Positions 12,776 through 15,817 of a stretch of DNA of 64,000 nt are shown here, piece by piece. Every line of letters begins with the position of its first letter. The first letter of the stretch is position 1. The notes beneath the pieces are model-generated. The model ran no database searches and was not told the origin of the DNA. It saw nothing but the letters and a program-made list of their open reading frames with translations. Source of the stretch: a virus (lineage: Duplodnaviria > Heunggongvirae > Uroviricota > Caudoviricetes); IMG/VR virus record IMGVR_UViG_2622736468_000003. One strand, written 5' to 3'. Made by a program: the position numbers and the translations under genes.

Positions 12776-13020
12776 ATTCATTACGATATGGGAATTCCCA
12801 TATCGGGTAAAAACGGTTTGCGGTAAAGCGAGAGTTAAGCAGAATTGCTGCGGGTGCTTGAGGCTGTCTGCCTCGGGCATGCCACCGTAAGGCAGACAGA
12901 GAAAAGCCCCAGTTAACATTACGCGTCCTGCAAGACGCCTAACATTAATCTGAGGCCAATTTCATGCTAGACACATGTAGGTTAGCCTCTTACGCGCCGA
13001 AAGGCAAGGAGAAGCAGGCT

Positions 13021-13176
13021 ATGAAGCAGCAAAAGGCGATGTTAGTCGCCCTGATCGTCATCTGTATTACCGTCGTAGTGACGGCACTGGTAACGAGGAA
13101 AGACCTCTGCGAGGTACGAATCCGAACCGGTCAGACGGAGGTTGCTGTCTTCACAGCTTACAAACCTGAGGAGTAA
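13021..13176 (+). CDS. hok: Hok/Gef-family type I toxin
   Basis: MKQQKAMLVALIVICITVVVTALVTRKDLCEVRIRTGQTEVAVFTAYKPEE; in-frame upstream extension from 12964 (mok-like). Confidence 0.8.
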   Translation: MKQQKAMLVALIVICITVVVTALVTRKDLCEVRIRTGQTEVAVFTAYKPEE

Positions 13177-13267: not shown

Positions 13268-13385
13268 ACGTACTGTGGTTGTGAATACGATTGGTATTAG
13301 GCTATGCTAACAACATTAGCCTGACTAATTTTGTATTGACTTGATTTTTGTTAAAGAACAGGACGGAGAAGTAAGGGTACACCCA

Positions 13386-13565
13386 ATGAGCTACGCACTA
13401 AAAAAACACCCGCGATTGACTATTCCCCCTCGCGATAAAAGCGTTGTGGCAGCTCCGCGCCCGGCTATCGATGAAAATTGCACTCATCGTGAGCAGGTGA
13501 AAAATGCTTTCGATTTCGGTTTTTCTCGTTACGAGAAGGCAATGGAAGAACTTTCAAAAGTGTAA
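13386..13565 (+). CDS. putative antitoxin (Phd position) for the downstream Doc-like toxin
   Basis: 59-aa ORF 10 nt upstream of the Doc-like gene; assignment by position only. Confidence 0.35.
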   Translation: MSYALKKHPRLTIPPRDKSVVAAPRPAIDENCTHREQVKNAFDFGFSRYEKAMEELSKV

Positions 13566-13583
13566 TGATGGGTATTGTGCTCT

Positions 13584-14069
13584 ATGGCTGAGATTGTTGA
13601 AGGAGTGCACTACCTTTCGTTTGATGATCTTACCGAAATTAATCGCCTTTTAATTGAGCTTCAAACACCAGATGAACCTGTTAGTGTGCTGAGTGTTGAT
13701 AATTTAAGTTCTTCTCAGTCTCGTCCCAGCATGGTTCGATGGTATGAACAGACTAATGACATGTTTGTACTGGCATCAGTATTGATTGAAAGTCTGATTC
13801 AGAATCATCCATTTGCTAATGCAAACAAACGAACAGCTATGATGGCTGGTTATGTCTTCTTGTTGTTGAATGGCTATGAGTTAACAGCACCAGGCGATGA
13901 AATCGTGGAAATGGCAGAGGGACTGGCCTGCAAAACCTATACTCGAGAAGATCTCGAGAACTGGTTGTGTTATTGGTCTCGTGCGTATGACAGCCGGGAA
14001 TTATGTAAAACAGGCGCAACTATTGTTTTGTATGAAACTATCAAGCTTAAAATAGAACAGCAAAACTAA
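13584..14069 (+). CDS. Doc/Fic-family toxin
   Basis: motif HPFANANKRTAMMA (Doc-type HxFxxxNKR). Confidence 0.7.
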   Translation: MAEIVEGVHYLSFDDLTEINRLLIELQTPDEPVSVLSVDNLSSSQSRPSMVRWYEQTNDMFVLASVLIESLIQNHPFANANKRTAMMAGYVFLLLNGYELTAPGDEIVEMAEGLACKTYTREDLENWLCYWSRAYDSRELCKTGATIVLYETIKLKIEQQN

Positions 14070-14088
14070 AGGTGCTTCTAATGAAAAT

Positions 14089-14110
14089 CCGCTTCGGCGG
14101 GTTTTGTTGT
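14089..14110 (+). terminator. rho-independent terminator after the Doc-like gene
   Basis: CCGCTTCGGCGG followed by GTTTTGTTG. Confidence 0.5.
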
Positions 14111-14119
14111 ATTGGAGTA

Positions 14120-14437
14120 TCATGATATTACTTGGATCCCGTTTTTCTCTACGACTGAAAGAAGGCGAAGAGCGGCACCTCCCGGCCGTTTTACACCACG
14201 TTCCCAGTCTGATATCAGGTTTTTACTGACGTTGAGGTATCTGGCAAAAACAGGTTGAGACAGATGCTCTCGTTCGCGCAGTGCACGGATCCTTTCCGGA
14301 GACATTACCGGCGCTGGCTGGAGACAAGTTTCATCGAATTCTCGCATAGTCTGTTTCGTTACTGCGCCGATATCATGAAGCGATTCCATCATTTCATGTA
14401 CGGATGCAAGCGCATCACTGCGGTAATTTTTACTCAT
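14120..14437 (-). CDS. HTH (XRE-type) antitoxin, HigA-like
   Basis: 105 aa; HTH segment LSQPVFARYLNVSKNLISDWERG; directly downstream of the toxin gene. Confidence 0.65.
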   Translation of the reverse strand: MSKNYRSDALASVHEMMESLHDIGAVTKQTMREFDETCLQPAPVMSPERIRALREREHLSQPVFARYLNVSKNLISDWERGVKRPGGAALRLLSVVEKNGIQVIS

Positions 14438-14491
14438 TGGGTACCTCCGTAAACTGACCCTGTAGAATCAGTTGTGCCAGTTGTTCATCTG

Positions 14492-14800
14492 TTAGATTGA
14501 GTACGTGAGGAGCCCCTTCCGAAATGCACTTTCCTCAGTAGCGGTTATATTTTCACGTTCATTTTTTGCGTATGCATATACGAAAAAGGCCCTTGTGCCG
14601 ACGCGATAGAAAATGATTGTGCGATAACCGCCAGATTTGCCGCCACCGACTCGTGGCAGACGTTGCTTGATAACGCCGTTACCCAGGTTTGCTGAGATAA
14701 GCCCGTTATCAGCCTGTTTAACAATTTCGCGCAGTGACTGGTCGGATATTTTGTTTTTGTGTGCAAATCGCTCAAACCAGGCGTTTTTAAAAATGCGCAT
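14492..14800 (-). CDS. RelE/ParE-superfamily toxin, HigB-like
   Basis: 102 aa; pattern DNGLISANLGNGVIKQRLPRVGGGKSGGYRTIIFYR...FFVYAYAKNERENI; toxin-first gene order. Confidence 0.65.
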   Translation of the reverse strand: MRIFKNAWFERFAHKNKISDQSLREIVKQADNGLISANLGNGVIKQRLPRVGGGKSGGYRTIIFYRVGTRAFFVYAYAKNERENITATEESAFRKGLLTYSI

Positions 14801-15145
14801 TTTTTTGTTCCGTTATTAATGTATAACACATAGTATTACATTGCGTAGGGATCTGCAATGCCATCAGTTTGACAACGTCGCGTATCCGGGATTATATTCA
14901 TCGCACGCCAGCAAAATCTGGCGTCGGGATTAGGAACCCCGGATAGAAACCGCGACAGAGACACGCCGCGAGCGTGTTTTTTATTGTCGTATGCACACGC
15001 ACATCTGAATTATGGTGGGGCGTATAGGGGAGCTGAAAAGCTCGCCGGTTGGTTTCCCGGTAGTTCCTAACCCTGTACGTCTCGCCACCCGATGATTAGG
15101 AACCTGACGGTGGTGATAGTTTAGAAACCACTCGAGGGCGTCATT

Positions 15146-15817
15146 ATGACAACTCAAGTTTCTGTTGAAACACTCTCCACGATTACTTACAAGCAGATCC
15201 CCGTTATCACTACCGAACTTTTGGCGCACCTTTACGGCACAGAAGCTATTCGTATTCGCCAGAATCACCACGAAAACAAAGGTCGTTTCATTGAGGAAAA
15301 ACACTTCTTCAAACTTGAAGGTGAAACTTTACGTGAGTTCAAGCACAGAGTAGCTTTTAACTACTCTGTGAAAATTGCCCGTAACGTTCGCTCCCTCATC
15401 CTATGGACAGAACGCGGCGCAGCCCGTCACGCAAAAATGCTCGAAACTGATCAGGCGTGGGAGGTATTCGAAAAACTGGAAGACTGCTATTTCAGCCAGG
15501 GAAAAACAGCACCAACCGAACAGCAGCCGCAGATTCAGCCACAATTCACAGCCGAAGAAATCATCCTCCTTTGCTACATGCAGCTCTGGATGGAAAAAGC
15601 CCAGGACCTCAGCAAACACCTGTATCCCATTATGAAAGAGCTGAACTCCTCATACACGAACAAGCTGTATGACATTGCGTTTGAGACCATCTACATGGTG
15701 ACGAAGAACAGAGACGCGCTACTAAGGGAGGTAACACGTCTCGACATGTCAAGTTCCATTATCCAGCGGGCCATGCCAATGCTGAAAAGCCTGCGGGCAA
15801 GACAATTTGAATTCTGA
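15146..15817 (+). CDS. antirepressor-like regulatory protein (ORF6N-type N-domain + shared KilA-C-like C-domain)
   Basis: 223 aa; C-terminal ~95 aa near-identical to the C-terminus of ORF 59898..60527. Confidence 0.55.
   Translation: MTTQVSVETLSTITYKQIPVITTELLAHLYGTEAIRIRQNHHENKGRFIEEKHFFKLEGETLREFKHRVAFNYSVKIARNVRSLILWTERGAARHAKMLETDQAWEVFEKLEDCYFSQGKTAPTEQQPQIQPQFTAEEIILLCYMQLWMEKAQDLSKHLYPIMKELNSSYTNKLYDIAFETIYMVTKNRDALLREVTRLDMSSSIIQRAMPMLKSLRARQFEF

Follow-up and report, generated by a model that had tools for sequence, protein, structure and literature searches.

The kinase Doc blocks translation, is well studied and has been connected with persistence; the way in which the C-terminus of the antitoxin Phd neutralises it is in use for the design of peptide inhibitors. 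Phosphorylation of EF-Tu is known for the Doc toxin of bacteriophage P1 (site TufA-T383, as cited in PMC13645617). According to an alanine scan of Phd from Salmonella, the hot spots are residues 56, 59, 60, 63, 67 and 70, among which Phe56 and Leu70 are essential 'gatekeepers' (PMC9207808). Ernits et al. reported that a Doc toxin is neutralised by the 'Phd-C' element by itself when this is attached to a Panacea domain or to SUMO, and that toxin-antitoxin (TA) operons exist in which the antitoxin is a neutralisation domain only (PMC10440598). Doc toxins with unclassified partners were found by Leplae et al., who also name modules of the paaR-paaA-parE type (PMC3141249). Here, we have analysed two neighbouring type II TA cassettes in a stretch of 64,000 nucleotides from a lambdoid E. 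coli prophage (IMG/VR record IMGVR_UViG_2622736468_000003; the whole stretch is referred to as the window). The plus-strand cassette consists of orf59, a gene for a protein of 59 residues, and a doc gene; the minus-strand cassette consists of a gene for a RelE-type toxin and a gene for a helix-turn-helix (HTH) antitoxin. The explanation that we favour, and consider likely as a whole, is that orf59 and doc form an intact two-gene operon, that the second cassette is a decaying HigBA2-type module that still provides an antitoxin or repressor but no working toxin, and that both are accessory genes ('morons') in a variable slot between the hok/sok locus and the antirepressor/ninB genes.

Modules of the paaR-paaA-parE type in prophages of E. 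coli O157:H7 possess a prophage-borne antitoxin of about 60 residues without a DNA-binding domain. In size and in the absence of such a domain this antitoxin resembles Orf59; the modules differ from orf59-doc in their toxin family, ParE, and in the separate regulator gene paaR, as no third gene accompanies orf59 and doc. The second cassette resembles HigB2-HigA2 of Vibrio cholerae (PDB 5JAA, 8A0X; PMC5416850), as in both the toxin gene precedes that of the antitoxin, the toxin is of RelE fold and possesses R51, R64, Y82 and K84 or their equivalents, and the antitoxin joins an N-terminal neutralising region to a C-terminal lambda-repressor-like HTH domain. The two systems differ in that they are only ~21-25% identical, that the family found here (PF06296, 123-124 residues) has an extra C-terminal helix and strand, and that the toxin gene of the window is frameshifted at codon 96. 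It was known already that Doc and the RelE/HTH pair are annotated in RefSeq and that TA genes are ordinary in the lambdoid accessory slot. New are the recognition of a 'hypothetical' 59-residue protein as the conserved partner of a Doc subfamily, and probably as a minimal antitoxin without DNA-binding domain, and the evidence that the gene of the second toxin has been broken repeatedly and is a pseudogene.

Conserved linkage of orf59 to a Doc-family toxin gene

The gene orf59 (13386-13565, plus strand) encodes a candidate minimal Doc antitoxin that is listed in RefSeq as 'hypothetical protein' (WP_000119356.1) and assigned to phrog_2208. A 74-residue version of the same open reading frame (ORF) begins at TTG 13341, the start given in a preliminary description of this DNA; the ATG at 13386 is preceded by a GAGG-type ribosome-binding site that is conserved across genera. 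The downstream gene, doc (13584-14069, plus strand), encodes a toxin of 161 residues that matched Pfam Fic (PF02661; E = 2.9e-11, 44.5 bits against a cut-off of 24), the NCBIfam model TIGR01550 (DOC_P1, 'death-on-curing family toxin'; 1.3e-35, 122.2 bits against a cut-off of 38.65, profile positions 2-122 of 122) and phrog_577 ('Doc-like toxin'; 1e-50). Its nearest solved structures are 9vzc ('death-on-curing family protein', 1e-12) and P1 Doc (1e-4), and its ATG start is confirmed by MAEIVEG N-termini conserved in other genera. The HPFANANKR motif, which the preliminary description had noted in this Doc-type toxin, is located at residues 75-83 and fits the Doc-type pattern H-x-F-x-[D/N]-[A/G]-N-K-R, not the HxFx[D/E]GNGRxxR of Fic AMPylases. 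Based on family membership and the intact motif, the protein is most likely a Fic-fold kinase of the Doc family that would stop translation by phosphorylation of EF-Tu, as P1 Doc does. About 30 C-terminal residues (~131-161) lie outside the TIGR01550 model, which matches residues 11-130, and extend past P1 Doc, which has 126 residues; this tail is the least conserved part among the homologs.

The preliminary description had paired the 59-residue protein with Doc by position only, and this pairing is now backed by strict synteny. Among 16 loci with an orf59 homolog, 15 have a Doc of 154-164 residues that begins 3-18 nt downstream and has kept H[PA]FANANKR. In addition, an orf59 relative of ~47% identity is followed by a Fic/Doc gene in the same way, which brings the count from the orf59 side to 16 of 17 loci. 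The linkage extends across more than ten genera, with loci in E. coli, Salmonella, Ewingella, Serratia, Kluyvera, Citrobacter, Hafnia, Rosenbergiella, Yersinia pestis, Xenorhabdus and Orbaceae. In the reciprocal direction, diverged Doc homologs of Providencia, Morganella, Pantoea and Salmonella were taken as the starting point, and in all four cases an ORF of the orf59 family ends 3-10 nt upstream. The pair occurs in the lambdoid nin region, in myovirus baseplate clusters, in a tail-gene region, at a chromosomal topA-sodC site and beside dinI/umuDC, and from these unrelated settings it follows that orf59-doc moves as a two-gene unit. No other candidate antitoxin was seen with Doc in the loci examined. 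Taken together, the gene neighbourhoods identify Orf59 as a conserved partner of Doc in near-obligate synteny, and very probably as its cognate antitoxin.

In Morganella morganii (L035 and L036, 2318-2497), the assemblies lack a gene call for the orf59 homolog directly 5' of doc, and the family is therefore likely undercounted in protein databases.

Searches with Orf59 itself gave no match to Pfam or NCBIfam at E ≤ 0.1 and no relative in PADLOC or the PDB. Thus, of the four proteins for which a Pfam comparison had been proposed, three match (Fic, HTH_3 and PF06296) and the 59-residue protein does not. Orf59 matches phrog_2208, whose function is unknown, over its full length. A word-indexed search yielded 17 clusters, all in Enterobacterales; when the family profile was run exhaustively with HMMER against 1.84 billion representatives, only 39 proteins were obtained at E ≤ 0.001, nearly all of 47-66 residues. 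This small yield indicates a small family that stands by itself and has not branched off from known antitoxins. Its signature consists of an N-terminal [RK]-L-x-I-P-x-R-D-K and a near-invariant C-terminal QV-x-NAF-xxx-F-x-RYEKA-x-EELSKV. Synonymous differences per site (pS) were saturated at 0.7-0.9 and the non-synonymous ones (pN) amounted to 0.11-0.26, which shows orf59 to be a real gene under purifying selection on its protein sequence. Selection is concentrated on the predicted C-terminal helix, with a pN of 0.08 in the C-terminal against 0.26 in the N-terminal half. A literature search on the RefSeq accessions of all proteins found no paper.

If Orf59 acts as proposed, a free-standing partner of 59 residues unrelated in sequence to Phd would represent a compact second solution to the inhibition of Doc. 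With its help, hundreds of 'hypothetical' genes beside doc could also be annotated in Enterobacterales, those of the O104:H4 and O157:H7 lineages among them.

Orf59 and the Doc-binding segment of Phd

In an AlphaFold2 (AF2) model based on the family alignment, residues 1-33 are without regular structure and residues 34-57 form a single helix with a predicted local distance difference test (pLDDT) score of 84-93; a folded DNA-binding or dimerisation domain was not seen in this model. As in phd-doc of bacteriophage P1 and Salmonella, the gene lies directly 5' of a doc with the HxFx[D/N][A/G]NKR motif on a prophage, and the protein is predicted to end in an amphipathic helix whose hydrophobic residues are spaced, and placed relative to the C-terminus, as F56, F/M60, L/H63, N/L67 and L70 of Phd. 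When both proteins are anchored at the C-terminus, F42, F46, Y49, M53 and L56 of Orf59 fall on Phd positions 56, 60, 63, 67 and 70. The two gatekeepers thus find an F and an L as their counterparts, and the last hot spot is followed by three residues in Orf59 as well as in Phd. Within the family, L56 is conserved in 31 of 31 sequences, Y49 in 29, and F42 and F46 in 22 each. Hydrophobic residues at all five positions occurred in 0.16% of composition-preserving shuffles, in a post hoc test in which Orf59 provides one register only. The system differs from phd-doc in that Orf59 has neither the N-terminal DNA-binding and dimerisation domain of Phd/YefM nor detectable sequence homology to Phd, and in that Doc has 161 instead of 126 residues with the C-terminal extension described above.

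According to the proposed mechanism, Orf59 would be a neutralisation element with an N-terminal half that is disordered and a conserved, amphipathic helix at the C-terminus, which probably binds Doc in the manner of the Phd-C segment of Phd. Such a mechanism has a precedent in the domain-only antitoxins and unclassified Doc partners mentioned above (PMC10440598; PMC3141249). The concept is that of the Phd-C element and the single-domain antitoxins, in which a short linear helical element suffices against Doc and can be separated from, or swapped between, globular domains. Phd-C is, however, part of a fusion with a Panacea domain or, in experiments, with SUMO; Orf59 would be a free-standing protein of 59 residues with no established homology to Phd-C, and it has an extra conserved N-terminal motif, [RK]LxIPxRDK. 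Since Orf59 is without a DNA-binding domain, the operon probably lacks autoregulation of the phd-doc type, and conditional cooperativity is not to be expected. The only element that the upstream regions of orf59-doc at 13 loci have in common is the ribosome-binding site. A conserved promoter or autoregulatory operator moving with the pair was considered and dropped on these grounds, together with the lack of a sigma-70 consensus 5' of orf59 in the window.

Homology to Phd was likewise considered and rejected. The family profile did not find Phd among all PDB sequences at E ≤ 10, and BLOSUM-based shuffles gave no significance, so that only a positional analogy was kept; the early remark that the protein does not obviously resemble Phd thus holds at the level of sequence in the Pfam, NCBIfam and PDB profile searches.

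Several points weigh against the role proposed for Orf59. The 23 C-terminal residues share only four identities with Phd 51-73, a score that was equalled by 3.8% of anchored and 27% of unanchored shuffles, and by substitution score the likeness of the two C-termini is therefore not significant. The correspondence to the hot spots was noted post hoc and is in part met by any amphipathic helix, and should be taken as suggestive only. The window shows no sigma-70-like promoter in front of orf59. Finally, there is a sole exception to the linkage, a JGI metagenome contig (L011, Ga0157366_1006901, 859-1286) in which an orf59 homolog of 64% identity is followed by an unrelated ORF of 76 residues without the Doc motif; this homolog may be an orphan antitoxin or a remnant.

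These points leave room for an alternative in which Orf59 is a co-transcribed small protein of another role, e.g., a regulator, a Doc adaptor or a translational-coupling leader ORF, while Doc is controlled otherwise or is not toxic. The homolog without Doc, the missing DNA-binding domain and the lack of homology to any known antitoxin in the searches made would all be compatible with such a role. However, it would not account for the near-obligate occurrence of orf59 in the canonical antitoxin position, with gaps of 3-18 nt in many contexts, nor for purifying selection on the protein sequence beyond mere upkeep of an ORF. In addition, no other candidate antitoxin accompanies Doc, and the pattern of the C-terminal helix fits the Doc-binding hot spots of Phd. 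We therefore regard another role as rather improbable and retain Orf59 as the probable neutraliser of Doc.

Recurrent disruption of the HigB2-like toxin gene

The minus-strand toxin is FRAMESHIFTED. The gene occupies 14430-14800 (minus strand), of which 14492-14800 is an open frame of 102 codons; its RelE-type product matches PF06296 ('RelE', 7.2e-38) over profile positions 1-95 of 120. In a three-frame translation of 14430-14560, the lost C-terminus, ending in APHVLNLTDEQLAQLILQGQFTEVPNE before the stop codon, is legible in another frame, and the stop of this C-terminal remnant (14430-14514) overlaps the ATG of the antitoxin gene (ATGAGTAA). Restoring one base yields a protein of 123 residues that matches PF06296 over positions 1-120 of 120, with 155.5 against 129.9 bits. 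In a DNA alignment, the AAG-GCx-GCx-CC of three intact genes is replaced by AAGGGGCTCC in the window (minus strand), which places a 1-nt deletion in codon 96 at 14513-14516, between 14514 and 14515. An intact protein of 123 residues that is 98% identical to the reconstruction (P0018) is present on 654 E. coli contigs, and members of the family have uniformly 123-124 residues.

A sequencing error as the cause of the frameshift was rejected, as the same deletion recurs in many independent assemblies, those of O104:H4 outbreak strains included, and the exact 102-residue allele is recorded on 85 contigs. The lesion does create a GGGG run on the coding strand, and homopolymers are prone to error and could in principle allow slippage. 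Nonetheless, the site CGG AAG GGG CUC is no canonical X-XXY-YYZ slippery heptamer, and relatives have acquired extra downstream lesions, which speaks against any upkeep of the frame. An assembly or sequencing error, or a bypass by programmed -1 ribosomal frameshifting, is thus highly improbable, and loss of the base in codon 96 is retained as the cause.

The state of the toxin gene was then compared among Doc-linked copies of ~99% identity, taking one representative per score group (n = 13). It was disrupted in all 13 close-lineage representatives, by four different lesions. Seven carry a deletion at codon 15 only, the window carries that at codon 96 only and has an intact N-terminus, three carry both, one has deletions at codons 90 and 96, and one carries an IS66-family insertion sequence (IS) together with the codon-96 lesion. 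The latter locus (L021, E. coli O10:H32 NMBU-W12E19) has the element (tnpA/tnpB/tnpC) at 3895-6333, within the 5' part of the toxin gene. The sole intact allele in the survey is diverged, with 95 substitutions (strain MFDS1022581). Correspondingly, lengths in the 90% cluster of the toxin range from 68 to 144 residues, with forms of 123 residues on ~900 contigs against aberrant forms on ~670; the clusters of Orf59, Doc and the antitoxin are essentially uniform in length. From these comparisons we regard the second toxin gene as a recurrently inactivated pseudogene.

The AF2 model of the intact protein P0018 (mean pLDDT 74) is of the RelE type, with a strand at residues 2-6, helices at 7-15 and 20-31, strands at 37-40, 43-48, 59-67 and 70-77, helices at 87-101 and 105-113 and a last strand at 117-120. 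Its ten best matches in the PDB are all HigB2 chains (probability 0.97-1.0), and the best solved match by sequence is V. cholerae HigB-2 (E = 0.004). An identity with the HigB of Proteus vulgaris and Rts1 was ruled out, as Pfam reports PF06296 only and the PDB matches in both sequence and fold are to HigB2. The earlier term 'HigB-like' is therefore appropriate in the sense of V. cholerae HigB2 and not in that of Proteus/Rts1 HigB. In the same way, the minus-strand genes do belong to a RelE-type toxin (PF06296) and an XRE-type HTH antitoxin, as had been proposed, but they do not form an intact TA pair, as the toxin is frameshifted here and frameshifted or disrupted by an IS element in all close relatives that were examined. 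By analogy, an intact toxin of this type would be a ribosome-dependent mRNase of RelE fold that is neutralised by the disordered N-terminus of the HTH antitoxin.

Whether the 102-residue product may still be active has to be considered, as some observations speak against its inactivation. The active-site residues reported for VcHigB2 are Arg51, Arg64, Tyr82 and Lys84 (PMC5416850). Its helix alpha3 is not known to hold a catalytic residue. The equivalents in the present protein by alignment to HigB-2, R47, R60, Y77 and K79, are all present and lie upstream of the lesion, so that the product may have some residual activity. An alternative would accordingly be that both cassettes are fully functional and that an active 102-residue HigB2-like protein is held in check by the HTH antitoxin. 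That the window carries only the codon-96 lesion, that the antitoxin is intact and that the NCBI Prokaryotic Genome Annotation Pipeline (PGAP) calls such ORFs toxins and not pseudogenes would also be in line with this alternative. On the other hand, the frameshift, according to the model of P0018, halves helix alpha3 and removes alpha4 and the terminal strand, and the lost residues 96-123 are conserved across the family, A96, A97, H99, L101, L103 and E119 among them. In sister lineages that share this lesion, more frameshifts or an IS66 element have been added, as would be expected for a gene that was already dead, and based on this the product is probably non-functional. We consider two functional cassettes to be unlikely; instead, with alpha3 cut and alpha4 and the last strand removed, the toxin would be inactive and the module is most likely a decaying remnant that supplies only an antitoxin or repressor.

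The HigA2-like antitoxin gene itself (14120-14437, minus strand) is intact and encodes 105 residues that match HTH_3 (1e-07), HTH_31 and phrog_2104 (3e-43). The best PDB match of the protein is V. cholerae HigA-2, residues 39-93 (7.9e-08), and in its layout, an N-terminal segment and then the XRE-type HTH (residues ~45-99), it agrees with HigA2. The identical protein, WP_000042397.1, occurs in 12 close-lineage E. coli records examined, and it is equally intact where the toxin gene is destroyed by the codon-15 frameshift or by IS66. Its integrity is therefore uninformative on the activity of the toxin and lends nothing to the idea of two functional cassettes.

In RefSeq, PGAP has named the toxin remnants 'type II toxin-antitoxin system RelE/ParE family toxin' at lengths of 68, 85, 89, 98, 104 and 112 residues and with varied starts, and has never flagged them as pseudogenes (L001-L003, L042-L049). 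Due to such labels on remnants of 68-112 residues, TA censuses over-count the active toxins in these pathogens. The locus represents a clean natural case of toxin decay with retention of the antitoxin.

More tentatively, Orf59 might be the founding member of an Enterobacterales-restricted family of minimal, DNA-binding-free Doc antitoxins marked by [RK]LxIPxRDK and paired with a Doc subfamily of ~160 residues as a two-gene moron at many positions in phage genomes. If this were so, orf59-doc would be a Doc switch that is either unregulated or regulated in another way, and that might serve as a phage-triggered device for abortive infection or superinfection exclusion. As a separate matter, the repeated and independent loss of the HigB2-like toxin with the antitoxin strictly kept could reflect selection for an orphan antitoxin, serving in anti-addiction or as a repressor, rather than neutral decay. 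Prophage stabilisation would be a further conceivable role of the cassettes. The PADLOC defence models gave no significant match for the four proteins, only a weak one of Doc to the candidate PDC-S23 (0.002) and weak generic HTH matches.

Genomic setting of the TA cassettes

The four ORFs and the hok/sok locus are located in the region between the replication and the nin genes, and the ORF check together with the HOK_GEF and Rfam sok matches confirmed the positions given for the ORFs as well as the adjoining hok locus. The family matches are strong and not those of chance ORFs. The type I TA locus hok/sok (12852-13176, hok coding sequence 13021-13176, plus strand) forms the left border of the TA island; it matches HOK_GEF (1.4e-23) and Rfam sok (116.9 bits) and is annotated as hokD in RefSeq. 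The two type II cassettes are transcribed convergently, with a hairpin of A-run, stem and T-run at 14084-14105 (no strand assigned) in between, which was identified by a terminator scan and RNA folding. The fold of 14070-14119 has a free energy of -16.4 kcal/mol (z = -3.27), and from its layout the terminator is plausibly bidirectional.

RefSeq records with 99.4-99.8% identical DNA show the order replication genes, DUF1627, DUF977, DUF551, hokD, orf59, doc, HTH, RelE, ORF6N/P22AR antirepressor-like gene, ninB, ninE, rusA, ninH and Q, and the block is therefore part of a lambdoid prophage. Of 5,426 complete E. coli genomes, only 34 contain the full block of four genes; the O104:H4 outbreak lineage is one of the carriers. 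The content of the slot varies among related prophages, in agreement with the earlier proposal of two separate type II cassettes in an accessory region. It holds Doc alone after hokD in two loci (L022, L023), the HigBA2-like pair without Doc and with a second HTH gene in others (L012-L019), and in a lambdoid prophage of Salmonella enterica (L006, GCA_011585245.1, 3496-6009) hok, orf59-doc, parDE and vapBC in tandem. As Doc thus occurs alone or with ParDE and VapBC, and the HigBA2-like pair without Doc, the two cassettes are independent of each other. The one type I and three type II modules packed into the Salmonella prophage further identify the slot as a general TA hot spot.

In loci L012-L018, which carry an intact HigB2-like toxin, the second HTH gene (~4196-4501) encodes about 101 residues and follows the antitoxin of 106 residues at the site where the Doc cassette otherwise sits; its product has 90 residues in L015 and is called with 154 residues in L018. 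Toxin, antitoxin and second HTH protein could form a three-gene arrangement in these loci.

The right border of the island is formed by a putative antirepressor region of the antisense type. Directly to the right of the toxin gene, a sigma-70-like promoter (TTGACA-18-TATATT, 11 of 12 matches) is present at 14869-14898 on the plus strand. On the same strand, Rfam matches were obtained for C4 antisense targets a1/b1 at 14892-14945 (44 bits, slightly below the gathering score), for isrK at 14905-14982 (69 bits) and for C4 antisense RNA at 15008-15092 (66 bits). The promoter and RNA matches (14869-15145) lie upstream of the ORF6N/P22AR gene (15146-15817), and together with this gene they look like an antirepressor module controlled by antisense RNA, similar to P1 immI or to IsrK of Gifsy.

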